A program made the translations under genes and the position numbers. A DNA stretch of 64,000 nt from positions 25,152 through 89,151 of the forward strand of contig CAKZQS010000043.1 in assembly GCA_937141935.1 (NCBI GenBank), in the 5' to 3' direction. This document shows, piece after piece, positions 25,671-64,000 of this stretch. The stretch comes from an uncultured Ectothiorhodospiraceae bacterium. Its GTDB lineage: Bacteria > Pseudomonadota > Gammaproteobacteria > Nevskiales > Oceanococcaceae. The stretch's first letter is position 1. The number at the start of each line of letters is the position of its first letter. Below the pieces are notes generated by a model that was not told the DNA's origin, searched no databases, and saw only the letters and a list, made by a program, of their open reading frames with translations.

Positions 25671-26842
25671 GCGCCGGGACGCTGCTGGGCTTCGCCCATG
25701 CCGACCCCTTCGACGCCGCGACCTGGTCGGGGTCCAGCGCCTATCTGTTTCGCGCGCTGCAGGCCGAGGGGCGGCTGGAAGACGCCGTCTCGGCCGCCTT
25801 GCCGCCCTGGGCCGAAAGCCTGCGCAAGGCCTGGAGTTTCCACCCGAGTCTGGACCGCTGGAAGGCGCGCTACGCCTCGGATTGGTACGCGGCGCCATGG
25901 ATGCGCAGCCTCGGGCGGCGGCGCGCCGGCCCCGCCATCGGCCGTGCGGGTGTCAGCCTGCAGGTCGGCGCCTGGTATGACTTCAGCGGGCTGGCCCCGC
26001 TGGCCACCTCTTACCACGACGGCAATTTCGCGGCCCGGCTGCACAGCCCCTGGGGGCGGACGGCGCTCAGCGCCTCGGCGGTGCGTCGCAAGCTGGAATT
26101 CGAACGTCGCATCTACGCCCGGCTGGACCTCATTTTCACGATGAGCGAGTGGCTGGCCGAGCGCTTCGTCGAGCACTACGCCGTGCCGCGGGAAAAACTG
26201 CGCCCCGTCTATGCCGGCATCAACATGCCGGACACCGCGCAGTGTCTGTCGCGCGATGAGGCCCGTCAGCGCCTGCTGTTCGTGGGCATCGATTTCCCGC
26301 GCAAGGGGGGCGAGGTGCTGCTGGAGGCCTTCCGGATGCTGCGCCAGCGGCTGCCCCGGGCGGAGCTGACCATCATCGGCCCGGCGCGGCCGCTGGCCGA
26401 CGTGCCCGGCGTGCGCTGGCGCGGGCACATATCCAAACATGACCCGCAGGGCCTGGCCGCACTGCGCGAGGAATACGACCGCGCCGACGTCTTCGTGCTG
26501 CCCACGCTCTACGAACCCTTTGGCATCGCCTATTGCGAAGCGATGGCGCGCGGGCTGCCCTGCGTCGGCACGCGGGTCTGTGCGGTTCCGGAGATCATCG
26601 CCGAAGGGGTCAGCGGAGAGCTGGTTCCGCCGGGGCAGGCCGAGCCGCTGGCCGCCGCCCTCCACGCGCTGCTCAGCCAGCCGCGGCAGGCGCGGGCGCT
26701 GGGCGCGGCCGGCTTCGCCCGCTATCGGCAGAACTTTCGCTGGCAGGCGGTGGCGCAACGGATGCTGGCGGCCTGCGACGAACTTGCAGCGTCCCGCCAG
26801 ACAGCCGCGGCAGCATCGCCAGCAGCCCCAGCAGCACGCTGA
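25667..26842 (+). CDS. Glycosyltransferase, GT4 family
   Basis: GTG 25667 overlaps the upstream stop (GTGA). Motifs FVGIDFPRKGG and VFVLPTLYEPFGIAYCEAMARGLPCVGT. Confidence 0.8.
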   Translation: MSAGTLLGFAHADPFDAATWSGSSAYLFRALQAEGRLEDAVSAALPPWAESLRKAWSFHPSLDRWKARYASDWYAAPWMRSLGRRRAGPAIGRAGVSLQVGAWYDFSGLAPLATSYHDGNFAARLHSPWGRTALSASAVRRKLEFERRIYARLDLIFTMSEWLAERFVEHYAVPREKLRPVYAGINMPDTAQCLSRDEARQRLLFVGIDFPRKGGEVLLEAFRMLRQRLPRAELTIIGPARPLADVPGVRWRGHISKHDPQGLAALREEYDRADVFVLPTLYEPFGIAYCEAMARGLPCVGTRVCAVPEIIAEGVSGELVPPGQAEPLAAALHALLSQPRQARALGAAGFARYRQNFRWQAVAQRMLAACDELAASRQTAAAASPAAPAAR

Positions 26843-28127
26843 CGTAACCCAGAATCTGCAGGTTAAACTCGGTCAGCGCGTGCACCGCCGCGGCGCTGAC
26901 GCCGGCCAGGGCCGCGGCCGCGCAGGCGCGGTGCAGCGGGTCGCGGCCGCCCAGGCTGCGCAGCGCCAGCAGCAGGTGGTAGCCGACCATCAGGCCGAGC
27001 AGGGCGAGGCCAATGCCGCCGACCTCGATGCCGAACTCGACATAGTCGTTGTGGGCATGGTCGTAGTAGGGGAAGTCGCTGTCGGGCTTATGCCGCTCTT
27101 GCAACGCGGCGTAGCTGCCCAGACCCGCTCCGGTCCAGCGGTACTGGTGAAAGATGTCCACGCCCAGGCGCAGCGCCTCGGGGCGGGTCTCACGATTCAG
27201 GTCGGTTTCTTCGATGCGTTCGAGCACCTGCTCCAGGCCGTAGCGCTCGCTGATCAGGGCGACGTCGACGGCCGCGATCAGAGCGAAGAACAGCCCGGCG
27301 CGCAGCAGGCTGGTGATGCGCCGCGTGCTCAGGGCCCAGGCCGTGGCGTAGACGCTCAGCGCGATCGCCAGCGTGATGTTGCCCATGCGCGAGCGGCTCA
27401 GCACGACGCCGACGACAATGGCCAGCAGCAGCACCCGCAGCAAGAGGTAGGGGCTGACCAGGAAGTCACCCAGGCGTCGTGAGCGCGAGGCCCAGGCGGG
27501 CGTCGATTGCGACTGACCCAGCATGGCGGCGATGGCCAGGCAGGCCCCCAGCACCAGATAGGCGGCGAAGTGGTTGCGGTTGATGAAGCCGCCGCTCGCG
27601 ATGCCTTGCTCGCTGACGTTCCAGCCCGGCACCGGCAGGGCCAGGCCGCCAAGGCTGTTTGCCGCCGCGACCACTGCGTGGCCGCCGATCGTGGCTGTGG
27701 CCAGCAGCAGCAGCGCCCGCAGCCGGGCACGGCTGTCCAGGGCCAGGGCCAGCCCCAGGTAAAGGCCAAAGTAGAACAGGCTGCGCACCAGGCCCTCGAT
27801 GCTGGCGCCCGGCATCACCGACAGCGAATACCAGGCCGGCGCGCCCAGCGAGTCGGCGGCGGCATGGTCCGCCAGCGCCGCCGGCGACCAGCGTGCCAGC
27901 AGGGCGGGGGACAGCGGCAGGCATTGCAGCAGCAGCCAGGCCAACCAGGCCAGCCACAGGGCCACGGCCACGCGCAGGGCCGCCGGCATCCGCCGGCGCA
28001 GGCCCAGCGCCAGCGCGGTGAAGCCCAGCGCGGTGATCAGTTGAAACAGCGCCAGTGCCAGCGGGCTGTTGCCGCCGCGAAACCAGGCCGGCCCCAGCAT
28101 GGCCAGCAGCAGCAGCGCGAAGCCCAC
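26673..28127 (-). CDS. O-antigen ligase/polymerase-family membrane protein (Wzy_C domain), second paralog
   Basis: Polytopic. Motifs LSRSRMG, RWTGAGLGSY, HAHNDYVEFGIEVGGIGL. Start is probably GTG 28127 or ATG 28100; the TTG at 28235 would overlap the upstream gene. The 3' end overlaps the convergent GT4 gene by 170 nt. Confidence 0.7.
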   Translation of the reverse strand: MGFALLLLAMLGPAWFRGGNSPLALALFQLITALGFTALALGLRRRMPAALRVAVALWLAWLAWLLLQCLPLSPALLARWSPAALADHAAADSLGAPAWYSLSVMPGASIEGLVRSLFYFGLYLGLALALDSRARLRALLLLATATIGGHAVVAAANSLGGLALPVPGWNVSEQGIASGGFINRNHFAAYLVLGACLAIAAMLGQSQSTPAWASRSRRLGDFLVSPYLLLRVLLLAIVVGVVLSRSRMGNITLAIALSVYATAWALSTRRITSLLRAGLFFALIAAVDVALISERYGLEQVLERIEETDLNRETRPEALRLGVDIFHQYRWTGAGLGSYAALQERHKPDSDFPYYDHAHNDYVEFGIEVGGIGLALLGLMVGYHLLLALRSLGGRDPLHRACAAAALAGVSAAAVHALTEFNLQILGYVSVLLGLLAMLPRLSGGTLQVRRRPPASVAPPPASESSADSGRSRPRPAPAPAAAG

Positions 28128-28140
28128 GCGGTTCGCGAGC

Positions 28141-28821: not shown

Positions 28822-30990
28822 TCAGTAGCGGTAGGCGTAGTAGCCGTAGTTGCCCTTGCGCTCCGCCACGGCACCGTTGAGCACCATGCCCAATAGCGGG
28901 GCCTGGATCTGCCGCAGGCGCTTGAGCGCCGCCAGCAGCGCATGCTTGCTGGTGCTTTCGGCGCGGGCCACGACCAGAATGCCGTCGATGTGCGGAACCA
29001 GATGCAGCGCATCGCTGGTCGGGCCAATCGGCGGGGTGTCGAACAGGATGCGTTCGTAGCGCGTGCGCAGCTCCTCAAGGAACTCGCCAAAGTGCGGCGA
29101 ATCCAGCAGTACGGCCGGGTTCGCCGGCGTCCCGCCCGCGGGGATGTAATGCACGCCGCTGATCTCGTCCTTCTGAATCACGTCGTCGAGCGCGGCTTGC
29201 CCGGCGAGGTGTTCACTGAGGCCTGGGTCGCCGCTGCGGCGGCGGCCCAGCATGCGCGCCAGCTGCGGGCGGCGCATGTCGGTATCGACCAGCACCACGG
29301 TCTCCCGCGTCGCGAAGGTCGCGGCGAGACCGGTGGAGAGCGTGGTCTTGCCTTCACCGGACTCGGGTGAGCAAATCGCCAGCGCGCGGATCTTCTTGTC
29401 CCGGTCGCTGAGCAGCACGGCGGTGCGCACGGCGCGCAGGCAATCGGCGAAGGCGGACTTGGGGTCCTGGGCGACCAGCGCGGCCGGCCGCGAAATCTTG
29501 CGGCGCATGCGCGGCACGAAGCCGATGACCGCTGCACCGCTGAGTTGCTCCAGGTCCTGCGCCGTTTCGATGCGGGTGCGCAGGGCTTCGCGCAGGATCA
29601 TCAGCGCCCCGGCCAGAAACAGCCCGAAGAGCACCGCCAGGGTGACACGCCGCCGGGTGTCCGGCAGGTACTTGGAGGCCGGCGGGATGGCCGGGTCGGC
29701 GATCCGCGCGTTGACGTCGACGTTGGCCGTGCTGGTTTCGGTTTCCTTGAAGCGGGCCAGGAACAGGTCGTACAGGTTGCGGTTGCTGACCACATCCCGC
29801 TCCAGCACGTTCAGCTCGAACTGCTTGCGGTCGACGGCCTTCAGGCGGCTCTCGGCCTGGCGCAGCTGGGCTTCGAGTTCCCGCTGGTTGCTGGCAGCGA
29901 TCTGGTATTCCGAATCGACTGCCGAGGCCTTGATTTCAAGTTGGCCCAAGTAGGCCTCGCGGGTGCTCTGCAATCGCTGCCGGGCCGTGGCCATCTGCGG
30001 GTGACGCGAGCCATAGCGTTTTTCCAGCGTGGCCACCTGCTCGAGGGCCTGCAGGTAGTCATTGGCCGCCTTGTTGACGACCGGATCGACGAGCAGCGCG
30101 CGTACGGTCGCCAGCGAGTCGGGGTTGTTGCCGGCGCGACGGATTTCGGCGCTGCTGTTTTGCAGCTCATTGGTACGGCGGCGGGCGTCTCGCAGCTTGG
30201 CCGACAGCGAGCGGACCTCTTCCTCCAGCAGCCCGCGGCTGCCGCCGACATTGACGATGTTTTCGGACTCGCGAAACTGCTGCAGGCGATCCTGGGAGGC
30301 GTCCAACGTGGAGGTCACCTCGCTGAGCTTGTCGGTCAGCCAGGACGTTGCCTTCTGGTAAACATCCAGGCGCGCCTGCAGCAGCTCCTCGATATAGAGG
30401 TCGGCCAGGGCATTGGCGGCATCGGCCGCAAGTTGCTTGTCACGCGACATGAAGCTGACGCGGAACAGGCTGGTGTTCATGACCAGCCGTGCCTCAATGG
30501 CCGCCTGCGTGCGCCGGATCGCGCGCTCGCGAACCTGCTCGGCGCTCTCCTCCCGTGGCGGCGGTTCCGCCGGCGTGAAGGGCAGGTCGTAGTACAGCCC
30601 CTTCAGTGCGCCCAGCCGTGATTCCCCGGGGGCGGCGAACTCGTCCACCTGGGTCAGCTGCAGCCTTTCCACCAGGCGCTCGGCCAGCTTGCGCGATTCC
30701 AGCAGCAACTGCTGCGTGTTGTAGTACTGGCTGGTGCCGTAGCCCGGGTCGTAGACGTCGTCGATCTCCTGCACCGGTTTGATCGGGGCTGGATCCAACT
30801 GCAGCAGGGCCGTCGCCCGATAGATCGGCTCCTCGGCCAGCGAAAGGTAATAGGCCGCAATCGCGCAGGCGATGGGCAGGCAGATCAGCGCCAGCACGTA
30901 GCGCCGCAGCAGGTCCACCAGATCGGCTACGCCGAAGGTCGTGTTGGTGTCGTGACCTTGGTACATGCCGGTGGGCGGTGAAGTGCTCAA
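28822..30990 (-). CDS. Polysaccharide co-polymerase / tyrosine autokinase (Wzc/GumC/ExoP type, PCP-2a)
   Basis: 722 aa. N-terminal Wzz-like region with a TM segment, a long coiled-coil periplasmic part and a second TM segment. Walker A SPESGEGKTT, Walker A'-like VLVDTDMRRP. C-terminal Tyr cluster GNYGYYAYRY. Confidence 0.9.
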   Translation of the reverse strand: MSTSPPTGMYQGHDTNTTFGVADLVDLLRRYVLALICLPIACAIAAYYLSLAEEPIYRATALLQLDPAPIKPVQEIDDVYDPGYGTSQYYNTQQLLLESRKLAERLVERLQLTQVDEFAAPGESRLGALKGLYYDLPFTPAEPPPREESAEQVRERAIRRTQAAIEARLVMNTSLFRVSFMSRDKQLAADAANALADLYIEELLQARLDVYQKATSWLTDKLSEVTSTLDASQDRLQQFRESENIVNVGGSRGLLEEEVRSLSAKLRDARRRTNELQNSSAEIRRAGNNPDSLATVRALLVDPVVNKAANDYLQALEQVATLEKRYGSRHPQMATARQRLQSTREAYLGQLEIKASAVDSEYQIAASNQRELEAQLRQAESRLKAVDRKQFELNVLERDVVSNRNLYDLFLARFKETETSTANVDVNARIADPAIPPASKYLPDTRRRVTLAVLFGLFLAGALMILREALRTRIETAQDLEQLSGAAVIGFVPRMRRKISRPAALVAQDPKSAFADCLRAVRTAVLLSDRDKKIRALAICSPESGEGKTTLSTGLAATFATRETVVLVDTDMRRPQLARMLGRRRSGDPGLSEHLAGQAALDDVIQKDEISGVHYIPAGGTPANPAVLLDSPHFGEFLEELRTRYERILFDTPPIGPTSDALHLVPHIDGILVVARAESTSKHALLAALKRLRQIQAPLLGMVLNGAVAERKGNYGYYAYRY

Positions 30991-31544
30991 AAGATCCGCT
31001 CGTCCACGGTGAGGACGTCACCGGGGTACAGCGGCGTATCAGCCGTGGCACGAAAGCGCTGCTCCGGTGACTCGCCGAAGCGCTGAATGTAGTACTTCTC
31101 GGCCGCGAAGCGGTTCAACCCGCCCGCCAGTGTCACGGCCTGCTGCACGGTCAGGCCGAGCTTGTAGGGGTACTCGCCGGTTTTCGACACCGCGCCGCCG
31201 ACATAGACCGGTTTGAACTCGGCCACGGAGAGCTGCACGTCGGGATCGACCAGGTAACCCTGCGAGAGCCGCTTTTCCAGCATGCGCTCGGTCCAGTCGG
31301 CACTCTGGCCGGCAACAGCCAGCCGGCCGAGCAGCGGGAAGTTCAGCGTGCCGTCGGGGTCGATGCGATAGCGACCGGAGAGGTCCTCCTCACGGTAGAC
31401 CTTGATGGCCAGCACGTCGCCCGGCGCGAGCCGATAGAGATCCAGCGTCATGACCGGCGCCTGCGCGGGCGGCGGGGGAGGCGCTTGCGGGCTGCCGGCG
31501 CAGCCTGCGACTGCCACTAGCAGCAGGAGGAGACATCGTTGCAT
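30987..31544 (-). CDS. Short outer-membrane polysaccharide export (OPX, Wza-family) lipoprotein lacking the C-terminal OM-spanning region
   Basis: 185 aa. Lipobox LLVAVAGC. Poly_export-type motif YRLAPGDVLAIKVY ... DGTLNFPLLGRLAVAG and one SLBB-like module (VYVGGAV ... LTVQQAVTLAGG). Confidence 0.8.
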   Translation of the reverse strand: MQRCLLLLLVAVAGCAGSPQAPPPPPAQAPVMTLDLYRLAPGDVLAIKVYREEDLSGRYRIDPDGTLNFPLLGRLAVAGQSADWTERMLEKRLSQGYLVDPDVQLSVAEFKPVYVGGAVSKTGEYPYKLGLTVQQAVTLAGGLNRFAAEKYYIQRFGESPEQRFRATADTPLYPGDVLTVDERIF

Positions 31545-31596: not shown

Positions 31597-32799
31597 TCAG
31601 TTCAGCTTGGCGGACAAGCCCACGGTGACCGCATAGCGCTCGAAGTCATCGGCATCGAGCACGGCCTCGCGCTCGACATAACGGTTGCTCAGGTACACCG
31701 ACAGACCCCGGTCCAGCAGCCACGTTCCACGCAGCGCCAGTGCGAAGACATCCTGCTGATTGCCGGAGCCCACGAAGTCCCTGTCCGTGAATTGTAGGGA
31801 AAGGCTGGAATTGAAGCGGGCGGTCCAGGATTGGCGCCAGCGCAGCGTGGTCGAGCGCTCGTCGATGAACTGAGAATTGAAGCGATAGGTCGGGCGGTAG
31901 TTGCGCCCGGACTCCAGGCGAAGACGGGTCCGCAGCGAGGGGTTCCAGTTCAGCCCGGCCTCCCAGTAGAAGCTGTCTCGCTCGGGTTGCGCATCGTCCT
32001 CAGGCGTCCACTCGGTGGTGCCTGCGCGCAAATCACCGCTGGTTTTCGCGGTGGCCTCCCAGGCCACGCCCGCTGCATAGACCTGCGCGGTACCGGAACG
32101 ATCCGGCGTGCCCGCGGCCGTTTCGTCGTAGTCGGTGTCGCTTTGGCTGACGTAGAGCAGCAGCGCCGTTTTTGGCGACAGCGTCAGGCTCGCGGTCAGC
32201 GACGGCGTATGCGTCTGCCGGTCCAGGAAGCGGGTGACGTCCTCGTTGGTGGTATAGCGCCGGTCGAGGTAGTCATAGGCCAGCCGCAAGGCCATGCGCG
32301 TGGCAAAGCGCTCGCCGATGACATAGCTGGCGCCAAGCTGGGTTTGCTGCCACTCGTCCAGGGATCGGTCCGGCTCGACGCCGGAGCCTTCCGTGCGCAC
32401 CGTGCCGAAGGGGTCGTGGTCGGTGCGAAAGCGCCCGTCGACCTGCAGCACCTGCTCGCCGGGCATCAGCAGGGCCAGCCGGGCCGAGGTGTCGCTATCG
32501 ACGTAGTTGTCTTCGTTGCTGAAGCTGAAGGCACCAGCCTCGATGGCGGCCCGCGTATTGAAGACGAAGCGGCGCGCGTCGCGGCGCAAGGCCACGCTCG
32601 GCGCGAGCACGGCGCCGACAACGGGCTGGGTCTCGTTGCGCTCGAAATAGAAGTTGTCGAAGTAGCGCAGCGAGGAGTCCAGCTCCACGTCGACGACATT
32701 GGCGCCTTGGCCCTGCGCGCCCAAGGGCGCCAGCGCAGCCAGCACGGCGGTGGCCAGACCCCGGGCGCGAAGGCCCGGTTGGGAGAGGCTCATCGGCAT
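31597..32799 (-). CDS. Outer-membrane beta-barrel protein associated with EPS export (EpsL / composite-translocon type)
   Basis: Signal peptide (LATAVLAALAPLGAQG). 400 aa with alternating-hydrophobicity strands rich in Y/R/D/T/S throughout. Sits immediately upstream of the short OPX gene. Confidence 0.55.
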   Translation of the reverse strand: MPMSLSQPGLRARGLATAVLAALAPLGAQGQGANVVDVELDSSLRYFDNFYFERNETQPVVGAVLAPSVALRRDARRFVFNTRAAIEAGAFSFSNEDNYVDSDTSARLALLMPGEQVLQVDGRFRTDHDPFGTVRTEGSGVEPDRSLDEWQQTQLGASYVIGERFATRMALRLAYDYLDRRYTTNEDVTRFLDRQTHTPSLTASLTLSPKTALLLYVSQSDTDYDETAAGTPDRSGTAQVYAAGVAWEATAKTSGDLRAGTTEWTPEDDAQPERDSFYWEAGLNWNPSLRTRLRLESGRNYRPTYRFNSQFIDERSTTLRWRQSWTARFNSSLSLQFTDRDFVGSGNQQDVFALALRGTWLLDRGLSVYLSNRYVEREAVLDADDFERYAVTVGLSAKLN

Positions 32800-51828: not shown

Positions 51829-51850
51829 GGGGTTGAGGAACCACGACCGC

Positions 51851-52909: not shown

Positions 52910-52912
52910 GGC

Positions 52913-54154: not shown

Positions 54155-55164
54155 GCCGCCCCCGGACATCGGCGCCGCCGCCGGCGCCATGGCTGTTTTG
54201 CCACCTGCCCAAGACCGCGGGGACGTCCTTTCGCGCCGCGTTGGGCGAGGTGCTGCCGGCGCAGGAACTGCTGCTCGATTATGGACGCGACAAGGCCTTC
54301 ACCAGCGCGGACCTGGAGGCGCGCCTGAAGCTGCCTGAAGAAAAGCGGGACTGGCGGGTGTTGGCGGGCCATGTGTCACTGCGGCGCTATGCGAGCCTGT
54401 TCGACCCCCGCCAGGTCATCGCCTTCCTGCGCGACCCGCTGCAGCAGTTGTATTCCCACCACCAGCACCACCAGCGGCGCTTCGATGACCCGCGCAGCCT
54501 CGCCGAGTTTGCACTCTCGCCTGCGGGCGCCGGCCTGCAGCGGCGCATGCTGGGCGAAGTGCCCGTGCAGTTGCTGGGCTTTGTCGGCCTGACCGAGCAA
54601 TACGCGGACAGCCTGAAGCTGCTGGCGCGGTCCCATGGCCTGCTGCTGCCGGCGCGCCACGCCAACAGCAACCCGAACAAGTCGGATCCCCGCTACCCGC
54701 TGCGCACCAGCGACCTGCCGGGGGAATGTCGCAAGGCCATTCACGCCGACCAGCGTTATTACATCCAGGCGACGCGGGTGCTGCGCGAGCGGCTGCGCTT
54801 CGGGAGCGAACAGCCCTGGGTCCATGGGGCCGTCACGGGTCTCAGCGCCGAGCGCGTCGACGGACTGGCCTTGGCCCCCATCGGCGAGACCCGCCCGCTG
54901 GCGCTGGAGGTGCGCGTCGACGGCGAGCACGTGGGGCTGGCCTGCACCGGCTATGCGCGCGACCTGCCTCTGGGCATGCGGCTCGCCGACGACAGCCGGC
55001 CCGGTTTCGTTTTTCACTTCCCGCGCCCACTTCCGCTGGGGGCCCGCGTTGATCTGTATGCCTGGGAAAGCGGGCAATGGCTGGATGCGCAGGAGCTGCG
55101 TGCCAGGGGCCCGGTCACGCCGCCCATGCGGCGGCGGCCGCGCGCGATGCGGGCTTCGGCATGA
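54151..55164 (+). CDS. Sulfotransferase (family-2-like) with C-terminal extension
   Basis: GTG 54151 (GTGA overlap). Motifs HLPKTAGTSF and LRDPLQQLYS. Confidence 0.7.
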   Translation: MSRPRTSAPPPAPWLFCHLPKTAGTSFRAALGEVLPAQELLLDYGRDKAFTSADLEARLKLPEEKRDWRVLAGHVSLRRYASLFDPRQVIAFLRDPLQQLYSHHQHHQRRFDDPRSLAEFALSPAGAGLQRRMLGEVPVQLLGFVGLTEQYADSLKLLARSHGLLLPARHANSNPNKSDPRYPLRTSDLPGECRKAIHADQRYYIQATRVLRERLRFGSEQPWVHGAVTGLSAERVDGLALAPIGETRPLALEVRVDGEHVGLACTGYARDLPLGMRLADDSRPGFVFHFPRPLPLGARVDLYAWESGQWLDAQELRARGPVTPPMRRRPRAMRASA

Positions 55165-56864
55165 CTGCCCGCCTGCAGCTGCTGCGCCTGGCGCGGCGGC
55201 TCTGGCGCCCGCTGCCCTTGCCGCTGCGGCTGGCCCTGTCGAGTCCGGCGGGCTGGCTGCGTGAGCGGCTGTTGCGGCACAGCCACTGGCACTATCGCGA
55301 CTGGATTGCCGCCGTCGAGCCGCGCCCCGAGCATCGGGCCGCGATGCGTACGCATCTCGAATCCCTGGGGGTGGCCGAGCTGCCCTTGCGGGCCGTACTC
55401 GACGCACGGCAGGCCGCCCCTGAGGCTGTTCAAGCGTCGCTGGACAGCCTGGCGGCGCAGTGGTTGCCCTGGGCGGCGCCCATCGTGTGGCGCGAGGGCC
55501 CGCTGAGCGCCTGCCTGTCCGGCCAGCAGGCCGGCGGGCTCATCACGGTGCTGCGTGCCGGCGATCGGCTGGCGCCCAGTGCGGGCTATTTTTTGCGCTT
55601 GGCCGTCCAGCGCCGCCCCGCGACCCGGCTGTGGCTCAGCGACGAGGACCGCATGGTCGATGGGCACCGCGCCGAGCCGCTGTTTCATGGGCAGTTCGAC
55701 CCGCTGCAATACTGGGCGGGCGCGCAGCTGCCGGGCGTCGTCAGCCTGCGCTGGGACGAGTCGACCGCCGGCCCCGTGGCCCAGGCCAGCGAATGGCCGC
55801 CGCTGCTGGCCGCCGTAATCGCGCAATGCGAGCCAGAGCAGATCGGCCACGTCGACAGCGTGCTGCTGCATCGCGCGCAGCCGGCGCCACCGCCGCACCT
55901 GCCGCCCTTGCCGGCCGGCCTGGAGCGCGAGGCGGGGCCCGCGGCTCCGGTGCTGCGGGCCACGTTGCCGGGCGCCGCGCCGCTGGTTTCGATCCTGATC
56001 CCCACACGCAACGGCGAGCACCTGGTGCGCCAATGCCTGGCCAGCATCGCCGAACGCGCGCCGCACAATCGTTGTCGCGTCGAGATTCTGCTGATCGACA
56101 ACGGCAGCGACTGCGAGCGGGCGCGTGCGTATTTTTCCACCTGCGAGGCGGCCGGCGAGCTGCGCTGCATCCGTGTGGATGCGCCCTTCAATTATTCGGC
56201 GCTGAACAACATCGCGGCGGAGCAGGCCCGCGGCGAGTTGCTGTTGCTGCTGAACAACGACATCGAGGTGCGCACGCTGGACTGGCTGGATCGCATGGCC
56301 GGTTTCGCGCTGCGGCCGGAGGTCGGTTGCGTCGGCGCCAAGCTCTATTACCCGGACGGGCGCATCCAGCACGCCGGGGTGATCACCGGCCTGGGGCGCC
56401 TCGCCGGGCACGCCCACCGCTTTGCCGCGGCGGACAGCGCCGGCTACGGCGGGCGGCTGTTGCGGCCGCAGCAGCTGTCGGCGGTCACCGCGGCCTGCCT
56501 GATGGTGCGGCGTGAAACCTACGCCGCCGTTGGCGGGCTGGATGCCGAGCACCTGGCCGTGGCCTTTAACGACGTGGACTTTTGCCTGCGCGTGCGCGAG
56601 CAGGGCCTGCGCAATGTCTGGTTGCCCGACGTGGAGCTGGTGCACCACGAGTCCGTGTCGCGCGGGGCCGACGACAACCCGGAGAAGGCCGAGCGCTTTG
56701 CCCGCGAGGCGGCCTATCTGCAGCGCCGCTGGCGCACGGACGAGCGCACCGACCCCGCCTACAGCGTGCACCTGTGCCACGAGGGTGAGGACTTCGGCCT
56801 GAACCGTTGGCCGCGGCCGCAGCGGCCCTGGCTGGGGCAGCCGGCGCCGCCGCGGGCCCTGTAA
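55161..56864 (+). CDS. Glycosyltransferase family 2 with N-terminal extension
   Basis: ATG 55161 (ATGA overlap). The C-terminal half has VSILIPTRNGEHLVRQCLASI, LLIDNGS, LLLLNNDIE, and VAFNDVDFCLRVREQGLRNVWLP. Confidence 0.8.
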   Translation: MTARLQLLRLARRLWRPLPLPLRLALSSPAGWLRERLLRHSHWHYRDWIAAVEPRPEHRAAMRTHLESLGVAELPLRAVLDARQAAPEAVQASLDSLAAQWLPWAAPIVWREGPLSACLSGQQAGGLITVLRAGDRLAPSAGYFLRLAVQRRPATRLWLSDEDRMVDGHRAEPLFHGQFDPLQYWAGAQLPGVVSLRWDESTAGPVAQASEWPPLLAAVIAQCEPEQIGHVDSVLLHRAQPAPPPHLPPLPAGLEREAGPAAPVLRATLPGAAPLVSILIPTRNGEHLVRQCLASIAERAPHNRCRVEILLIDNGSDCERARAYFSTCEAAGELRCIRVDAPFNYSALNNIAAEQARGELLLLLNNDIEVRTLDWLDRMAGFALRPEVGCVGAKLYYPDGRIQHAGVITGLGRLAGHAHRFAAADSAGYGGRLLRPQQLSAVTAACLMVRRETYAAVGGLDAEHLAVAFNDVDFCLRVREQGLRNVWLPDVELVHHESVSRGADDNPEKAERFAREAAYLQRRWRTDERTDPAYSVHLCHEGEDFGLNRWPRPQRPWLGQPAPPRAL

Positions 56865-56876: not shown

Positions 56877-57728
56877 TTGCCTGGTCGAGTGGAAACGGTG
56901 CCCGAAGCGGAGTCTGCGGCGCAGCCCCTGATCCCCGCACTGCCGCCGCGGGTCCAGGGTCGGAGCCACCTGCGGGTCTTCCTGACGGCCTTGCATGCCT
57001 TTCTGCTGCGCGAGCTCAAGCAGCAGTTCGGCCGCTCGCGGCTGGGCTATTTCTGGGCGGTGGCCGAGCCGGCCGCCACGGTGGCCGTACTGACGCTGAT
57101 CCACGCCGGCATCCGCGGCGGCGAGGCCCAGATCTACGGGGCACACCCGATCGTCTTCTTCGTATTCGGGGCGGTGCCTTTCTTCACCTATTTCCACTGC
57201 GTGAATCGCTGCCAAAACGTCTGCGGCAGCCACAAGGGGCTGTTCAACTACCGGCAGATCAAGCCGGTGGACATCATGCTGGCGCGGGCGATCATTGAGG
57301 CCCTGTCGATGCTCACCGTGGGCGTGCTGTTCGTGATCGGGTGGTTGTGGCTGGGCCACGATTTCAGCCTGCCCGACCCGCTGGTGCTGCTGGCGGCGAT
57401 GCTGGCGCTCTTTGCGCTGGGTCTGGCCGTGGGTCTGATATTCGAGGTGTTCGGCACGGTCTACCCGGATCTGCGCCGCGTCTTCACGATTGCGATGCGG
57501 CCGATGATTTTCATCTCGGGGCTGTTCTTCACCATCGAGATGATCCCGCCCCAGCACCGCCACCTGTTGACCTGGAACCCGGTGCTGCACGCGGTCGACT
57601 TCGCGCGCGAGGGCGTGCTGGCGGGCTATGACTCGCCGGCCAGCGGCAGCTACCTGCTGCTGTGCATTCTCGGCCTGCTGCTGGTCGCCTTCTCGGCCTA
57701 CCGCCGCTTCATGTACCGGCTGATCTGA
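56877..57728 (+). CDS. kpsM: ABC-2 type polysaccharide export permease (KpsM/Wzm type)
   Basis: Polytopic. N-terminal LRELKQQFGRSRLGYFWAVAEP is typical of ABC-2 capsule permeases. The start is uncertain (TTG 56877 or GTG 56889). Confidence 0.8.
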   Translation: MPGRVETVPEAESAAQPLIPALPPRVQGRSHLRVFLTALHAFLLRELKQQFGRSRLGYFWAVAEPAATVAVLTLIHAGIRGGEAQIYGAHPIVFFVFGAVPFFTYFHCVNRCQNVCGSHKGLFNYRQIKPVDIMLARAIIEALSMLTVGVLFVIGWLWLGHDFSLPDPLVLLAAMLALFALGLAVGLIFEVFGTVYPDLRRVFTIAMRPMIFISGLFFTIEMIPPQHRHLLTWNPVLHAVDFAREGVLAGYDSPASGSYLLLCILGLLLVAFSAYRRFMYRLI

Positions 57729-57733
57729 GCGCG

Positions 57734-58408
57734 ATGATCCGCCTGACCCGCGTCACCAAGACCTATCCGTTGCTCGGCATGGCCCGGCACACGGTGTTCC
57801 GCAACCTGTCGCTGGAGCTGCCCTCGCGGACCCATATCGGCATCCTGGGCCGCAACGGGGCGGGAAAGTCCACGCTGCTGCGCCTGATCGGGGGCGCCGA
57901 GCTGCCGGATCGCGGGCGGGTGGAATCCGATGGCAGCATCTCGCCGCCGCTGGGGCTGGCGAACGGCTTCGCCGTCAAGATCTCCGGGCGCGACAATGCG
58001 CGTTTCGTGGCGCGGATCTGCGGCGACGACGACGACGCGGCGCAGGAGCGAATTCGTTTCGTGCGCGAGTTTTCCGAGCTGGGCGTATTCTTCGACCGGC
58101 CGGTCGAGACCTACTCCTCCGGCATGCGCGCCCGCCTGGCCTTCTCGATCAGCATGTCCTTCGACTACGACTACTACCTGATCGATGAACTGACGGCCGT
58201 TGGCGACAAGCGCTTCCGCGACAAGGCCGAGCGCACCTTCAAGGAAATGAAGGGGCGGGCCAGCATCATCATGGCCAGTCACAATCTCGCGCAGCTGCGC
58301 CGCGACTGCGAGATCGGCGTTTATTTGAAGGGGAATGCGGTGCATTACTACGACGACATCGGGGCGGCTGTGGCCGCCTATGAGCACGACCAGCGGCAGG
58401 CCGCATGA
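57734..58408 (+). CDS. kpsT: Polysaccharide export ABC transporter ATP-binding protein (KpsT type, no C-terminal glycan-binding domain)
   Basis: ATG 57734. Walker A GRNGAGKST, signature YSSGMRARL, Walker B YYLIDE. 224 aa. Confidence 0.9.
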   Translation: MIRLTRVTKTYPLLGMARHTVFRNLSLELPSRTHIGILGRNGAGKSTLLRLIGGAELPDRGRVESDGSISPPLGLANGFAVKISGRDNARFVARICGDDDDAAQERIRFVREFSELGVFFDRPVETYSSGMRARLAFSISMSFDYDYYLIDELTAVGDKRFRDKAERTFKEMKGRASIIMASHNLAQLRRDCEIGVYLKGNAVHYYDDIGAAVAAYEHDQRQAA

Positions 58409-59517
58409 GCGCACGCTGGCAACAGTTGATGGCGCAAAGCCGCCTGCGTCGCTACGCCGTGGCGGTGGCGTTGCCGACGCTGATCGTCTGGGCCTACCTG
58501 GGCCTGGTGGCCACGGAAGGCTACGTCGCCCGCGCCGAGATCCTGATCGAGCACGACGACAGCGCCACCGTCCCCAGCGTGGACCTGGGCCTGCTGTCGA
58601 TCGGCAGCGAGAGCGACAAGCTCGACGCGCTGGTCGTGCAGACCTACATGCGCTCGCGCGCGATGCTGGCCGAGCTGGATGCGGAACTCGACCTGCGCGG
58701 CCATTTCGCGAGCACCGATATCGACCCCTGGCAGCGACTGGGCGCCGGGGAAACGGCCGAAGGCTTCCTGGATTATTACCGCGGTCTGCTCGAGACCGAG
58801 GTGGATCCTGAGTCCTTTGTCATCAGCGTGGCCTACACCGCCTATGACGCCGCCTTCGCCCAGGCTGTCGTTGCCGCGCTGCTGCGCCACGCCGAGCAGT
58901 TCGTCAACGCGATCAGCCGGCAGATGGCGGACGAGAAACTGCGCTTCATTCGCCAGGAGGTCGATGCGGCCCAGGTCCGGTTGAAAGCAGCCACGCGGGA
59001 GCTGATCGCGCTGCAGCGGCAGACCGATGTGCTGAGCCCCGAGCAGGAAACCACCGCCGCCGGTCAGATCCTCGGCGGCCTGCTGGCCGAGCTGGCGCGG
59101 CAGCGCACCGAGCTGCGCGCGCTGCAGAACTTCCTGAACCCGGACGCCCCGGAAGTCGCGTTGACGCGGCAGAAGGTGCGTGCGCTGGAGGAGCAGATCG
59201 AGGATGAGCGCGAGCGCCTGGTGGGCGCTGATGGCGCCGGCGGGCTGAACGACCTGTGGCTGCGCTACCAGGACGCCGAGGTCAATCTGACGCTGACTCA
59301 GGAGGTCTACAAGAACGCGCTGGCGAGCCTGGAGACCACCCGCCTGGATGCCGCGCGCAAGGCCAAGTTCCTGGTGGCGCTGTCGCCGCCGCTGCAGCCG
59401 GAAGAGGCGGAGCGGCCGCGCACCGCCTACTGGACGCTGACCGTCTTTGTTTTTCTGAATCTTGTTTATCTGGTCGCGGGCCTGCTACTGGCCACGATTC
59501 GCGACCACCGGGAGTAA
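58405..59517 (+). CDS. kpsE: Capsule export inner-membrane adaptor (KpsE type, PCP-3)
   Basis: ATGA overlap with kpsT. An N-terminal and a C-terminal TM segment flank a coiled-coil-rich periplasmic region. Position between kpsT and kpsD. Confidence 0.7.
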   Translation: MSARWQQLMAQSRLRRYAVAVALPTLIVWAYLGLVATEGYVARAEILIEHDDSATVPSVDLGLLSIGSESDKLDALVVQTYMRSRAMLAELDAELDLRGHFASTDIDPWQRLGAGETAEGFLDYYRGLLETEVDPESFVISVAYTAYDAAFAQAVVAALLRHAEQFVNAISRQMADEKLRFIRQEVDAAQVRLKAATRELIALQRQTDVLSPEQETTAAGQILGGLLAELARQRTELRALQNFLNPDAPEVALTRQKVRALEEQIEDERERLVGADGAGGLNDLWLRYQDAEVNLTLTQEVYKNALASLETTRLDAARKAKFLVALSPPLQPEEAERPRTAYWTLTVFVFLNLVYLVAGLLLATIRDHRE

Positions 59518-59519
59518 GC

Positions 59520-61229
59520 ATGCACCCGCGCACCGCCCCCATTCTCGGCGCCCTGATGCTGCTCGGCAGTGCCACGGCTGGCGCCCAGCCCCCCTTCTTT
59601 TCCGGCCAGCTCGACCCGCAGCTGTCCACCCCGCAGCCGCAGGCCGCCTATCCGGGCCAGCCGCCCGGCGCGCTGCCGCCGCAGTCCACCACGCAAACCC
59701 CGGCGCCGCCGCCGGTGGAGCGCGAGCTGGATGATTCGGTCTTCGGCGGCACGCTGTTCCAGGGCCACTTCGCCCAGGAGTCCTTCCGCGGCTTCAACCC
59801 GGATTACGTTGTCAGCGTCGGCGACTACATCGACCTGCGCCTGTGGGGCGCGGTCGACATGGCGCTGCGGCTGGAGGTCGACTCGCAGGGCAACATCTTC
59901 ATCCCGCGGGTCGGGCCGGTGCGCGTGGCCAATGTGCGCAATGCCGAGCTGGATGCGGTGGTCGAACGGCGCATCAAGCGCATTTACCGCGAGAACGTAG
60001 GCGTTTACGCCTCGCTGGCCGCGGCCGAGCCGGTCAAGGTCTTCGTGACCGGCGGCGTGCAGGCGCCCGGGCTGTACGGCGCCTACGCCGCCGATTCGCT
60101 GCTGCACTTTCTCGACCGCGCCGGCGGCATCGACCTGGACACCGGCAGCTTCCTCGACGTGCGCGTGCTGCGCAGCGGGCGTACGGCGCAGCGCTTCAAC
60201 ATCTATGACTTCCTGGTCGACGGCCAGCTGCCGTTGTTCCAGTTCCGCGATGGCGACACGATCATCGTCGGGCCGCGGCAGGAGACCGCCGAGGTCGGCG
60301 GCATGGTCTACCGGCCGGCGCAGTACGAGTTCGAGGACAGCATTGCCCTGGGCCGGCTGCTGGAGCTGGCCGGCGTCGACCCGCAGGCCACCCACGTCGA
60401 ACTGGCGCGCAACGCCAGCGCCGCGCGCGAGGTGCGCTACCTGACGCTGGCCGACCCGGCCACGGCGGCGCTGCCGGTGCGCGGCGGCGACGAGGTGCAC
60501 GTCACCGCCGACCGCGAGACCGCCAGCATCGTGGCGCAGGTCGAGGGCGAGATCGCCGGGCTGTCGCGCTACGTGCTGCCCTACACCAGTTCGCTGGCCG
60601 ATCTGCTGGTCATGCTGGAGCCGACGACGCGTTCCGATCTCGACGGCGTGCAGCTCTTCCGCCGCAGCCTGGCCGAGCGGCAAAAGGAAGTGCTGGAGCA
60701 GATGCTGCAGAAGCTGGAGCAGTCCGTGCTGTCGGCGCGCTCCAGCACGCGCGAGGAGGCCCAGCTGCGCGCCCAGGAGGCCGAGTTGGTGCTGCGCTTT
60801 GTCGAACGCGCCCGCGACATCGAGCCCACTGGCCAGCTGGTGCTGCACAGCGGTTACGACCCCGAGCGCATCGCTTTGGAGGATCGCGACCGGCTGCTGG
60901 TGCCGCGACTGTCACAAACGGTGGCGGTGCAGGGCGAGGTCTATTTCCCCAGCGCCTTCATCCACCGCGAGGGCAAGGGCCTGGAGTACTACCTGCAGAT
61001 GGCCGGGGGCCTGAGCCAGAACGGCAGCAAGGATCATGTCTTCATCCGCCGGCCCAACGGCGTGATGATCGAGGCCCGCCGCGGCTGGCTCAGCGCCGAG
61101 GAGATCCGCCCCGGCGACGAGATTCTGGTGCTGCCGAAGGTGGACGCGAAGACCTTCCAGTTCTCCAAGGACCTGGTGCAGATCCTGTATCAGATCGCGC
61201 TGTCGGCCGGTGTTGTGCTGCGCATCTAG
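59520..61229 (+). CDS. kpsD: Outer-membrane polysaccharide export protein (KpsD type OPX)
   Basis: ATG 59520. Signal peptide, a Pro/Gln-rich N-terminal stretch, a Poly_export-like region (GDYIDLRLWG ... DSQGNIFIPRVGPVRVAN) and several SLBB-like modules. Confidence 0.75.
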   Translation: MHPRTAPILGALMLLGSATAGAQPPFFSGQLDPQLSTPQPQAAYPGQPPGALPPQSTTQTPAPPPVERELDDSVFGGTLFQGHFAQESFRGFNPDYVVSVGDYIDLRLWGAVDMALRLEVDSQGNIFIPRVGPVRVANVRNAELDAVVERRIKRIYRENVGVYASLAAAEPVKVFVTGGVQAPGLYGAYAADSLLHFLDRAGGIDLDTGSFLDVRVLRSGRTAQRFNIYDFLVDGQLPLFQFRDGDTIIVGPRQETAEVGGMVYRPAQYEFEDSIALGRLLELAGVDPQATHVELARNASAAREVRYLTLADPATAALPVRGGDEVHVTADRETASIVAQVEGEIAGLSRYVLPYTSSLADLLVMLEPTTRSDLDGVQLFRRSLAERQKEVLEQMLQKLEQSVLSARSSTREEAQLRAQEAELVLRFVERARDIEPTGQLVLHSGYDPERIALEDRDRLLVPRLSQTVAVQGEVYFPSAFIHREGKGLEYYLQMAGGLSQNGSKDHVFIRRPNGVMIEARRGWLSAEEIRPGDEILVLPKVDAKTFQFSKDLVQILYQIALSAGVVLRI

Positions 61230-62156: not shown

Positions 62157-62240
62157 CGGGTTAAAACCGGTAAATTGGCGGAGTGGCCTTGGCCACGGGC
62201 GCAATGCGCCGTATAGACATCGGGGTATTTTAGAGTGCGT

Positions 62241-62549: not shown

Positions 62550-62646
62550 TGCAGCGCGATAGCGTGCACATCGCGATTCGCGTATTCTTTAGGGTAAATT
62601 CGCCTTTTAGACACTTCTCGAATTCGGGTTTAGGGAGATGGACACA

Positions 62647-63159
62647 ATGCTTAAGAAGACTCTGCCCCTGGCCGTAGTTGCCGCGCTGGGCCTGGCCCCC
62701 GCGCTGCAAGTTGCGCATGCGCAGGCCGGTGGCGCCGTCGAATCCTCGGGGTCGCTGTCCCAGCAGGGCGCCAGCAGCGTCGCCGCGGTGCTGGGCATGT
62801 CCCTGTCCGAGGCCATTGCGCAGGGCATGATTGCCCCCGCGGGCCCGGGCACCTACGCCGTGACGCGCAAGGGCGCCAAGGCCGTGCTCGCCGCCAAGGG
62901 CGTTGGCACGGGGGCCACCGGTGGTTCGATGATCGCGGGCCTGGGGCCGGCCGAGCTGACCGCGATGGTCGTCGGCGTGCTGGGCCTGGGTTGGGCGATT
63001 GCCGAAGAGGACGACCTCGAACTGGGTGGTCCTGCGCCGACCACGACGCCGACCGCCCCGCCGACGCCGTCGCCGTCGCCCAGCGACGCGCCGCCGACCA
63101 CCGGCTCCTCGAGCAGCGGTAGCGCCTCGAACACCGGCACCACGGGTTCGGGCACCTAA
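62647..63159 (+). CDS. Small secreted/membrane protein with Gly/Ser/Ala-rich body and Pro/Thr/Ser-rich tail (GfcA/YjbE-like composition)
   Basis: ATG 62647 has better spacing from the AGGGAG Shine-Dalgarno than ATG 62638. Signal peptide MLKKTLPLAVVAALGLAPALQVAHA. Hydrophobic segment LTAMVVGVLGLGWAIA. The tail ends SSSSGSASNTGTTGSGT. Followed by a terminator. Confidence 0.6.
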   Translation: MLKKTLPLAVVAALGLAPALQVAHAQAGGAVESSGSLSQQGASSVAAVLGMSLSEAIAQGMIAPAGPGTYAVTRKGAKAVLAAKGVGTGATGGSMIAGLGPAELTAMVVGVLGLGWAIAEEDDLELGGPAPTTTPTAPPTPSPSPSDAPPTTGSSSSGSASNTGTTGSGT

Positions 63160-63196: not shown

Positions 63197-63224
63197 AAGG
63201 GGCTGGTTTGCCAGCCCCTTTTTT
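63197..63224 (+). terminator. Intrinsic terminator
   Basis: AAGGGGCTGG-tttg-CCAGCCCCTT followed by TTTT. Confidence 0.8.
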
Positions 63225-63276
63225 ATGCCCGCGGTGTTTCGCCGCCCGTTCGATCGTCGCCGATGGCTCTCATTCC

Positions 63277-64000
63277 GTGCCCCTGCTGACCCGCCGCTCG
63301 CTCCGTGCGCTCACGGCGGTGCTCGCGCTGTGCTGGGTCACGGCGGCCCCGGCACGGGTCGCGCTGGAGGGCTTTCCGGGGGCGCTGCTGACGCCCACGG
63401 CGCGTATGGCGCCCAGCGGCCAGTTCGCGCTGAACATGGCCCGGCACCAGCCCTATTCCACGCTGACCCTCAGCGCGCAGGTCTTCCCCTGGTTGCACGG
63501 GGCGATCCGCTATGTGTCGATCGATGATCGGCCCTATGGCCCGGGGATCGACCAGAGCTACAAGGACAAGGGCTTTGATTTCGCCCTGCGCCTGTGGCCG
63601 GAGCTGGGCTACCGGCCGGCCGCGGTCGTCGGCCTGGTCGATGTCGGCGGCACCGGGCTATTCGGCTCCGAATACTTCGCTCTGAGCAAGCGACTGGGCG
63701 CATTCGACGTCGCGCTGGGGCTGGGCTGGGGGCGCCTGGGTGCCGCCGGGGACTTCAGCAACCCCCTGGCGGAGCTGGACGAGCGCTTCGCCGAGCGTGC
63801 CGATTTCGACGAGGTCGAAGGCGGCGAGTTCAACGTCGACGAATGGTTCTCCGGCGATCAGGTGGCCGTGTTCGGCAGCCTGCGCTGGCAGCCGCCCGGC
63901 AGCCGCTGGTCGCTGCTGCTGGAGTGGGACGGCAACGACTACGACGAGCGGGGCCTGGACCCGCAGCGGCCGGATGCCGAGCCCGCCGCGGGCCCGGTCG
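63277..64000 (+). CDS. YjbH/GfcD-family outer-membrane exopolysaccharide protein (5' part; continues beyond the window)
   Basis: Not in the ORF track because there is no stop in the window. My own translation from GTG 63277: VPLLTRRSLRALTAVLALCWVTAAP ... FPGALLTPTARMAPSGQFALN ... QVFPWLHGAIRY ... SYKDKGFDFALRLWPE ... VDVGGTGLFGSEYFALSKRLGAFDVALGLGWGRLG. This matches the conserved YjbH N-terminal pattern as I remember it (TPTARM, FPWLE..RY, YKDKxFD, GGTGLF.EY). Confidence 0.8.
   Translation, partial: MPLLTRRSLRALTAVLALCWVTAAPARVALEGFPGALLTPTARMAPSGQFALNMARHQPYSTLTLSAQVFPWLHGAIRYVSIDDRPYGPGIDQSYKDKGFDFALRLWPELGYRPAAVVGLVDVGGTGLFGSEYFALSKRLGAFDVALGLGWGRLGAAGDFSNPLAELDERFAERADFDEVEGGEFNVDEWFSGDQVAVFGSLRWQPPGSRWSLLLEWDGNDYDERGLDPQRPDAEPAAGPV

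Follow-up and report, generated by a model that had tools for sequence, protein, structure and literature searches.

How many polysaccharide export systems are encoded in a stretch of DNA that holds parts of three, each of them short of its canonical partners? This question is raised by a 64-kb window (the whole stretch analysed here), which corresponds to positions 25152-89151 of the 145-kb contig C43 (CAKZQS010000043.1) in the 3.57-Mb, 98% complete genome of an uncultured Ectothiorhodospiraceae bacterium of the order Nevskiales (GCA_937141935.1). An earlier annotation made from the letters alone, hereafter the sequence-only reading, had described Wzy-type parts, a KpsMTED set of the ATP-binding cassette (ABC) type and a YjbH/GfcD-family gene, and had proposed that either several polymers are made from one super-locus or the modules are combined in a non-canonical way. 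We consider it likely that the island comprises two separate envelope-spanning export routes and one accessory outer-membrane cassette. Both proposals thereby hold in part: the synteny of the modules in related genomes supports several polymer routes in one super-locus, although it gives two units instead of three (Wzx/Wzy with a short outer membrane polysaccharide export (OPX) protein of class 3, and KpsMTED with the YjbH cassette), and judged by the Escherichia coli paradigms the second unit is indeed non-canonical, as it joins a KpsMTED set lacking KpsC/KpsS to YjbH and YjbF. The apparent puzzle of three incomplete systems is thus resolved into a mostly ordinary but useful annotation. All the components first described are present at or near the places given for them, one Wzy_C gene (22136-23701) lying upstream of where that description began.

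The window has a G+C content of about 70%, which fills raw lists of open reading frames (ORFs) with many false frames, and genes were therefore called by third-position G+C and then scanned against Pfam and NCBIfam. The glycan island to which the window belongs as the middle part is about 83 kb long (contig C43, about 11.5-94.7 kb); on its left edge stands a fumarase gene followed by fcl and gmd at about 11.5 kb, and spoT and recG follow its right edge at about 94.7 kb. For the comparison of islands, all island proteins were searched by tblastn against the corresponding regions of twelve relatives, and YjbH and KpsE were surveyed in 151 genomes of the order. The named homologues found for the KpsD-like protein belong to Fontimonas, Sinimarinibacterium, Algiphilus, Panacagrimonas, Hydrocarboniphaga and Oceanococcus, and point to an organism near Oceanococcus within the Nevskiales. 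Genomes, genera and families of the comparison are given below by number (G, g and f, respectively), and C denotes a contig.

The first route is of the Wzx/Wzy type, and its genes in the window are as follows (PGT, phosphoglycosyl transferase; PCP, polysaccharide co-polymerase).

1472..2551, plus strand: WecA-family polyprenyl-phosphate N-acetylhexosamine-1-phosphate (HexNAc-1-P) transferase, the initiating PGT; PF00953 107 bits, TIGR02380 ECA_wecA 63 bits (below cut-off)
22136..23701, minus strand: Wzy_C-family membrane protein no. 1, polymerase or ligase; PF04932 71.4 bits
26673..28235, minus strand: Wzy_C-family membrane protein no. 2, last gene of the conserved Wzc operon; PF04932 66.8 bits
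28141..28812, minus strand: conserved 223-aa protein between Wzc and Wzy; no Pfam or NCBIfam match
28822..30990, minus strand: PCP-2a Wzc-type tyrosine autokinase/co-polymerase; Wzz, GNVR and AAA_31 domains
30987..31544, minus strand: class-3 (D1D2) OPX lipoprotein, 185 aa; Poly_export and one SLBB domain
31597..32799, minus strand: predicted 18-stranded outer-membrane beta-barrel; PF10082 BBP2_2 72.6 bits, EpsL-like
33871..36393, minus strand: penicillin-amidase-family protein (acylase), head of the barrel-OPX-Wzc operon; PF01804 375 bits

No Wzx lies within the window (no PF01943 match), as the sequence-only reading had said, and yet the route does not lack one. A MOP/Wzx flippase gene is located at contig positions 21616-23130 and ends 2,021 bases before the window starts (PF13440 228.7 bits; PF01943 128-131 bits; NF007773 185.8 bits, below the 273-bit cut-off). 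It heads a plus-strand string of genes that reaches into the window and includes the WecA-type PGT, the sole such gene of the genome apart from MraY. The Wzc-type protein exceeds the cut-off of TIGR01007 (135.6 against 108 bits), carries Walker A, A' and B motifs and ends in a tyrosine-rich tail (YGYYAYRY), and its gene overlaps that of the short OPX by 4 bp. The latter protein has a VAGC lipobox and reaches its C-terminus directly after the SLBB domain, without an outer-membrane-spanning helix; with 185 residues and D1D2 only it falls within the class-3 size limit of <=280 aa, and its best match among solved structures is the class-3 OPX WzaB of Myxococcus xanthus (9n9a, E 1.8e-20). The AlphaFold2 (AF2) model of the adjacent barrel shows 18 strands (pLDDT 80, pTM 0.75), and one homologue of this protein bears the JGI name VpsM. 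Composite translocons of a class-3 OPX and a beta-barrel were described in 2022 as widespread (PMC9601211; PMC9603273), and by its model the barrel matches this published type as the predicted porin half. From its gene content, the Wzx/Wzy route is a putative complete pathway consisting of Wzx, WecA-type PGT, Wzy_C, Wzc, short OPX and barrel. The repeat unit would be built on undecaprenyl phosphate by the WecA-type PGT together with glycosyl- and sulfotransferases, flipped by Wzx and polymerised by one of the Wzy_C proteins; Wzc would then pass the polymer to the periplasmic OPX lipoprotein, with the adjacent barrel acting as the outer-membrane pore.

The characterised systems of this kind, namely EpsY/EpsX and WzaX/S/B of M. 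xanthus and VpsN/VpsM of Vibrio cholerae (PMC9601211; PMC9603273; PMC12819527), share with the present one the short lipoprotein OPX without C-terminal helix, the 18-stranded barrel next to it, a PCP-2a Wzc encoded in the same operon and Wzx, Wzy and a PGT in the locus, though the sequence identity to them is low. Here, however, the operon additionally includes the penicillin-amidase-family gene and a gene with a FecR domain, the PGT is of the WecA and not of the WbaP type, and no low-molecular-weight protein tyrosine phosphatase (LMW-PTP, Wzb) is found on contig C43, three being encoded elsewhere in the genome. By gene content, this family of marine gammaproteobacteria has and conserves the class-3 OPX/beta-barrel translocon described in the literature.

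That this module is a unit of its own is seen from the relatives. Some 0.6 kb separates the homologues of the barrel and of Wzc in 10 genomes of the family, and the short OPX occupies the gap between them in both genomes that were fetched for the check (G048 and G013). The acylase is 69-75% identical at the same position on G048:C8 and G013:C22; the 223-aa protein has a counterpart of 35% identity at the same place on G048:C8, and homologues of Wzy_C no. 2 follow Wzc with 44% identity on G048:C8 and 32% on G013:C22, so that the product of 26673-28235 is likely the Wzy polymerase. Both Wzy_C proteins score above the Pfam cut-off. Wzy_C no. 1 gave no match in the islands of the relatives examined and resembles only weakly the O-glycosylation-ligase-like model TIGR03097. 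In G048, the operon acylase-barrel-OPX-Wzc-223-aa-Wzy stands on contig C8, which also carries, at a distance of 24 kb, a Wzx of the same type, while KpsMTED is on C1, and in G023 and G006 Wzc and the barrel are likewise on a different contig from KpsE. In the congener G013, the Wzc and Kps modules share one contig, as in this genome. Their separation onto other contigs in relatives marks the Wzc/barrel module as an independent unit, and since the two modules share a contig in some genomes and not in others, their co-localisation is variable rather than obligatory. The idea that the Wzx/Wzy segment is a strain-specific insert was rejected, given the conservation of the operon across the family.

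The same comparison bears on the notion of one hybrid machine, in which all parts serve a single sulfated polymer and two OPX proteins and two barrels are united in one apparatus. All the parts do lie in one sulfotransferase-rich island (as seen in the Pfam and NCBIfam scans), and G013 repeats their co-localisation on one contig. However, the modules are found on different contigs in G006, G048 and G023, each has its own inner-membrane engine, PCP and OPX, and two more Wzx/OPX loci exist in the genome; we regard a single apparatus as extremely improbable. These further loci, on contigs C45 (24-39 kb) and C42 (21-28 kb), each contain an OPX (ORFs of 350 and 384 aa, respectively), a WbaP-type PGT and a Wzx, to which the C42 locus adds a Wzc-like PCP and the C45 locus an LMW-PTP. 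The genome accordingly encodes at least four OPX-based export routes, and multiple independent routes are the norm in it.

The second route is centred on an ABC exporter in the order M-T-E-D, with genes that overlap or abut.

56877..57728, plus strand: KpsM-like ABC-2 permease; PF01061 ABC2_membrane, NF050053 KpsM 118 bits (below the 300-bit cut-off)
57662..58408, plus strand: KpsT-like ATPase, start codon uncertain; PF00005 ABC_tran
58405..59517, plus strand: KpsE-like PCP-3 adaptor; TIGR01010 BexC_CtrB_KpsE, E 6e-84
59520..61229, plus strand: class-2 (KpsD-type) OPX, 569 aa; Poly_export and SLBB domains

KpsM is the best NCBIfam model for the permease, the best matches of the ATPase are TagH and Wzt-type polysaccharide exporters, and the adaptor matches TIGR01010 over its full length with 282 bits, below the 437.5-bit cut-off. 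The ORF listed for KpsD (59256-61229) is too long; the ATG at 59520 is most likely its true start, as it is preceded by a GGGAG, lies two bases beyond the stop codon of kpsE and yields a signal peptide. Searched by sequence against solved structures, KpsD is Wza-like in its N-terminal part only, and the likeness to GfcC was seen by fold comparison alone. The AF2 model (44 homologues, pLDDT 85) has a 19-residue C-terminal helix at 550-568, and Foldseek matched it to Wza (2j58, E 3e-15) and to GfcC (3p42, E 1.4e-7, TM 0.53), although the latter match may reflect a generic pair of SLBB domains. On this model, KpsD would have the class-2 OPX architecture of Saidi et al.

The exporter resembles that of the E. 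coli group 2/3 capsule in its gene order, in an ABC-2 permease and an ATPase of the expected Pfam families and in a KpsE-like PCP-3, with permease and adaptor both below the curated cut-offs. Its OPX is, by its model, of class 2, Wza-like towards the N-terminus, GfcC-like in another part and helical at the C-terminal end. What it lacks are the enzymes of the beta-3-deoxy-D-manno-octulosonic acid (Kdo) linker. The sequence-only reading had reported several partners as absent from the window. Its proviso was that partners found immediately outside would make this three adjacent ordinary loci, and such partners do exist for the Wzy-type set and the YjbH set, as Wzx lies 2 kb outside the window and a YjbF-like gene follows YjbH just beyond its end, and within the window the barrel stands beside the OPX; for KpsC/KpsS the absence stands. 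There is no KpsC/KpsS (PF05159), KpsF or KpsU within the window, nor any PF05159 match anywhere on contig C43, and the profile search found no dedicated KpsF/KpsU in the locus, the CMP-Kdo supply of the genome coming from one kdsB-like and one kdsD-like gene, which are confined to contigs C42 and C52. The sole Capsule_synth (PF05159) gene of the genome (C38:18366-19553; 395 aa, single domain) is unlinked; it overlaps the end of a heptosyltransferase gene of glycosyltransferase (GT) family GT9 and has glnE as its other neighbour. Because of this lipopolysaccharide (LPS)-core context we infer that it belongs to LPS-core synthesis, and the KpsS-like product may transfer Kdo to the LPS core instead of to a capsule. 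PF05159 is absent altogether from five g13 genomes with the same Kps module, including one closed single-contig genome of 3.2 Mb.

A recent review describes KpsS and KpsC as conserved throughout the ABC-dependent capsule systems and names the Vi antigen as the exception (PMC12220298), and Kps-like sets of cyanobacteria likewise do without them (PMC4594306). Given these two precedents, an ABC route lacking KpsC/KpsS is unusual but not unprecedented, and the route described here would, from its gene content, work without them. It shares with VexABCDE of Salmonella Typhi, whose polymer has a diacyl-HexNAc anchor (PMC12220298), and with the cyanobacterial sets (PMC4594306) a KpsMT/KpsE/KpsD-like exporter without beta-Kdo linker enzymes. 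The models of VexB, VexC and VexD are matched only weakly (57, 64 and 117 bits, with cut-offs of about 300-900). In contrast to these, the likely primer here is the product of the WecA-type PGT.

This candidate primer is suggested by a block of genes that recurs around the exporter in relatives, reading GT2-KpsM-T-E-D and then, on the opposite strand, a GT21-like GT, a rhamnosyltransferase-like GT2 and a WecA-type PGT. The counterparts in the window, aside from the exporter and the PGT, are the following, listed here together with rmlBACD.

55077..56864, plus strand: GT2 directly 5' of kpsM; PF00535
61254..62204, minus strand: GT21/rhamnosyltransferase-like GT, divergent from kpsD; PF13506
36489..37448, minus strand: rhamnosyltransferase-like GT2; TIGR01556 111.6 bits (below cut-off)
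37451..40840, plus strand: rmlBACD, dTDP-L-rhamnose supply; Pfam matches

Identities over the block amount to 45-73% in genera g13, g2 and g23, and to 36-50% for KpsM/T/E/D in congeners. Genes 39-45% identical to the first GT2 adjoin KpsM in most relatives, those 44-53% identical to the GT21-like GT adjoin KpsD in all relatives examined, and those 42-46% identical to the rhamnosyltransferase-like GT2 lie between GT21 and WecA beside KpsD in g13 and g2 genomes. The best match of the WecA-type PGT in relatives also adjoins KpsMTED. In the present genome the block is rearranged, with the rhamnosyltransferase-like GT2 now leading the Wzc operon next to rmlBACD; the latter genes are linked to the Kps/YjbH island in G085, G059 and G013. 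Often found with the block are pieces of a 1934-aa enzyme, sulfotransferases, a secreted 650-aa protein, a peptidyl-prolyl isomerase (PPIase) and a 160-aa protein, and in several genomes rmlBACD.

As the WecA-type PGT and rhamnosyltransferase-like GTs flank KpsMTED in relatives, the polymer of the ABC route would be primed on undecaprenyl phosphate and extended with rhamnose. An undecaprenyl-linked primer made by the WecA-type PGT is the most likely one for this route, the single enzyme probably serving both routes, and by analogy the ABC route can be placed closer to ABC-dependent O-polysaccharides than to group 2 capsules. The polymer would be finished in the cytoplasm by GTs, including the rhamnosyltransferase-like ones and the 1934-aa multidomain enzyme, and modified by sulfotransferases as well; KpsMT would take it across the inner membrane, and KpsE and the class-2 KpsD would carry it outward, most likely on a WecA-derived primer instead of the beta-Kdo-lysophosphatidylglycerol anchor of the KpsC/KpsS type. 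Compared with the E. coli group 2/3 capsule locus, the differences lie not only in the missing KpsC, KpsS and dedicated KpsF/KpsU (one unlinked KpsS-like gene standing beside LPS-core genes) but also in the YjbH cassette, the several sulfotransferases and the WecA-type PGT and rhamnosyltransferase-like GTs that relatives place beside the exporter. We see the more useful lead of this study in the ABC route, in which KpsMTED without KpsC/KpsS occurs in several genera beside a WecA-type transferase and rhamnosyltransferase-like GTs.

A WecA-type primer and rhamnosyltransferases would also fit an O-polysaccharide style of assembly, and the product could be conceived as a group-4-like O-antigen capsule, with KpsMT exporting the WecA-primed polymer, one Wzy_C protein serving as a WaaL-type ligase onto lipid A-core and YjbH inserting the product into the outer membrane. 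The Wzy_C family does include O-antigen ligases, two copies are present here, no. 1 gives weak ligase-like matches only, and a published simulation proposed a lateral gate in GfcD through which chains anchored on lipid A could pass (PMC11494523). Against this, the tblastn search found no Wzy_C homologue in the compact Kps-YjbH islands of g13 and g2, Wzy_C no. 2 is locked into the conserved Wzc operon, and a polymer joined to lipid A would be transported by Lpt and have no need of KpsE/KpsD, which together make an O-antigen capsule very unlikely.

Two side observations concern the genes of this block. First, KpsM/T/E/D are 47-73% identical to the g2 and g13 copies, which belong to other genera and families, but 36-50% identical to those of the own-genus genomes G006 and G013 (window 56877-61229 compared with G006:C2, G013:C22, G048:C1 and G020:C47), whereas SpoT is 78-80% identical within the genus, which suggests that the Kps module was replaced or horizontally transferred. 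Second, the 1934-aa enzyme (42048-47852) matches several shorter separate stretches in most relatives, while in the congener G013 a single long match covers 1599 aligned residues at 47% identity; the fusion seems to be specific to the genus.

The third set of components is the YjbH cassette, which stands downstream of the exporter and consists of three genes.

62638..63159, plus strand: secreted 173-aa protein in the YjbE/GfcA position; signal peptide and P/T/S/G-rich tail
63208..64000 and on to contig position 90521, plus strand: YjbH/GfcD-family outer-membrane protein, 720 aa; PF06082 586.5 bits for the full protein
contig 90518-91246, plus strand: YjbF-like lipoprotein, 242 aa; PF11102 22.5-23.7 bits (below the 25.9-bit cut-off)

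YjbH covers positions 6-657 of the 658 in PF06082 (the partial protein within the window scores 217 bits) and occurs in one copy only in the genome. The YjbF-like gene, just outside the window, overlaps the YjbH stop codon by 4 bases and encodes a product with an LLAGC lipobox. Such a gene follows each linked YjbH, and those at the same position after Kps-linked YjbH exceed the PF11102 cut-off in G079 (33.6 bits) and G095 (38.2 bits). In a full HMMER scan, 7 of 11 distant homologues matched PF11102 and nothing else (best E 2.2e-9). A sequence comparison with solved structures gave nothing useful for this protein, and a word-indexed protein search returned only itself. Taking the family matches and the position together, we accept the 242-aa protein as a putative divergent YjbF/GfcB. 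Of the small Ser/Thr-rich proteins that the sequence-only reading had placed before YjbH, the 173-aa one stands, with 36-44% identical ORFs 5' of YjbH in G020, G095, G099, G006 and G013. It was not accepted as a member of the YjbE family, since PF11106 does not match and the resemblance is in position, signal peptide and composition only. The 104-aa ORF (62235-62549) was rejected as a gene because it fails the codon-position G+C test and has neither family match nor relatives.

A separate YjbG/GfcC is missing, as no PF06251 match was found in the 98%-complete genome, and by model comparison a GfcC-like fold was found only within KpsD, whose GfcC-like part may supply the GfcC/YjbG role. The cassette has in common with E. 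coli gfcABCDE-etp-etk and yjbEFGH the YjbH/GfcD protein, the putative YjbF/GfcB-like lipoprotein, a small secreted Thr/Ser/Gly-rich protein upstream and an OPX nearby. It differs from these loci in its order (E-like, H, F instead of E-F-G-H), in having no separate YjbG/GfcC and in that the small protein does not match the YjbE model, and from the group 4 capsule locus in that the nearest OPX is the KpsD type of an ABC transporter and not Wza/GfcE with Etk and Etp, Wzc being about 30 kb away in another operon.

To our knowledge, the function of YjbH/GfcD proteins has not been established even in E. coli, and the question is whether the cassette belongs to the ABC route at all. Among the 151 genomes of the order, YjbH is present in 87, KpsE in 51 and KpsE together with a strong YjbH in 27. 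In 12 of these 27 the two genes lie 3.9-44 kb apart on one contig, in two they share a contig but are far apart, and in 13 they are carried by different contigs. They are separated by 3.9 kb here, by 6.7-9.4 kb in five g13 genomes, by 20-27 kb in another five and by 44 kb in the congener G006; in G013 they stand on separate contigs, which are probably adjoining. A tree of 31 YjbH proteins places the Kps-linked copies of g13 in a single, fully supported clade that does not include the second, unlinked copies found in these genomes, and the three copies from this genus group together. Homologues of YjbH/GfcD near class-2 OPX genes were also counted by Saidi et al. (2022), with 4-5 for class 2A and 18-19 for class 2B.

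Several points weigh against tying the cassette to the exporter, and against our account of the ABC route as a whole. KpsE is present in eight of nine g2 genomes and YjbH in one of nine (one weak match), and the g2 islands read KpsMTED-GT21-GT2-WecA-GT2 without YjbE-like/YjbH/YjbF; KpsMTED without YjbH in g2, where KpsD is 60-62% identical to ours through to the C-terminal end, means that YjbH is not needed for export by KpsD. Conversely, family f4 has YjbH in 23 of 31 genomes and KpsE in none of the 31, and several genomes have a second, Kps-unlinked YjbH, so that YjbH can work without the Kps module. Furthermore, the sole WecA-type PGT of the genome stands in the Wzx gene string 55 kb from kpsM, and its assignment to the ABC route comes through relatives only; all KpsM, KpsE and YjbF scores are below the curated equivalog or gathering cut-offs; and the likeness between KpsD and GfcC may, as said above, be that of a generic pair of SLBB domains.

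The distribution in g2 and f4 and the unlinked second copies, together with the stand-alone yjbEFGH operon of E. coli (cited in PMC9603273), would suit three independent systems, the YjbE-like, YjbH and YjbF genes forming a self-standing yjbEFGH-type unit that merely lies beside kpsMTED and handles a product of its own or of another locus. That said, the adjacency of YjbH and KpsMTED is kept in three genera (3.9-10 kb in g13 and in this genome, 20-27 kb in g23), the cassette has neither a YjbG nor a glycosyltransferase set of its own, no GfcC domain protein is found elsewhere in the genome, and the linked YjbH copies of g13 fall in a clade apart from the unlinked ones; we thus find a self-standing unit rather unlikely. 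The candidate role of YjbH as an obligatory pore for a helix-less KpsD was rejected, because KpsD has a C-terminal helix and the equally built KpsD of g2 occurs without YjbH. With the two routes retained, the cassette is best described, from its distribution, as a putative accessory that has become attached to the ABC route in some lineages and is not obligatory. It would probably organise or anchor the polymer at the outer membrane, as GfcABCD does for the group 4 capsule. In a simulation study, GfcD was proposed to release lipid-anchored chains sideways into the outer membrane (PMC11494523), which suggests that YjbH anchors the polymer rather than forming a pore.

A more specific version can be put forward tentatively, as a possibility that we hold with some doubt: KpsMTED, the WecA-type primer and the YjbE-like/YjbH/YjbF genes may constitute a distinct KpsC/KpsS-independent ABC capsule pathway, conserved in several Nevskiales genera, that makes a sulfated polymer containing rhamnose, in which the two-barrel YjbH would work directly with the class-2 KpsD, the GfcC-like domain of the latter would replace YjbG, and the lipid-linked polymer would be delivered to or anchored in the outer membrane. 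The natural presence and absence of the YjbH/YjbF cassette between sister genera offers a comparative system for the function of YjbH/GfcD, and the same system serves the question of the lipid anchor of KpsC/KpsS-independent capsules.

Some further genes around these modules deserve mention. Proteins of about 700 aa in the glycan islands of congeners align with the YjbH model over no more than its first ~130 positions (G006:C2:149262-149681, G013:C22:7163-7624, G033:C78, G051:C7 and others); they have no counterpart in this genome, and may represent an undescribed outer-membrane family sharing the N-terminal domain of YjbH. The secreted acidic 650-aa protein, the PPIase and the 160-aa SnoaL-like protein (49798-53395) are conserved beside Kps in g13, g23 and congeners, sometimes in multiple copies, and thereby appear to be part of the ABC-route island and not passengers. 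Located between a sulfotransferase gene and the GT2 gene 5' of kpsM, a gene at 54151-55164 encodes a 337-aa protein without Pfam or NCBIfam match, whose N-terminal LPKTAGTSF resembles the loop of sulfotransferases that binds 3'-phosphoadenosine 5'-phosphosulfate (PAPS); it is likely a further sulfotransferase. Finally, directly downstream of the window (contig C43, 91226-94688), a PgfS/ArnC-like polyprenyl-phosphate glycosyltransferase (NF047588, 285 bits) is encoded beside a 691-aa DUF2298/Chlor_Arch_YYY membrane protein. A pair of this kind is typical of periplasmic glycosylation from a lipid-linked sugar, and both genes occupy the same location between spoT and the YjbH cassette in the congeners G006 and G013, with 57-65% identity.

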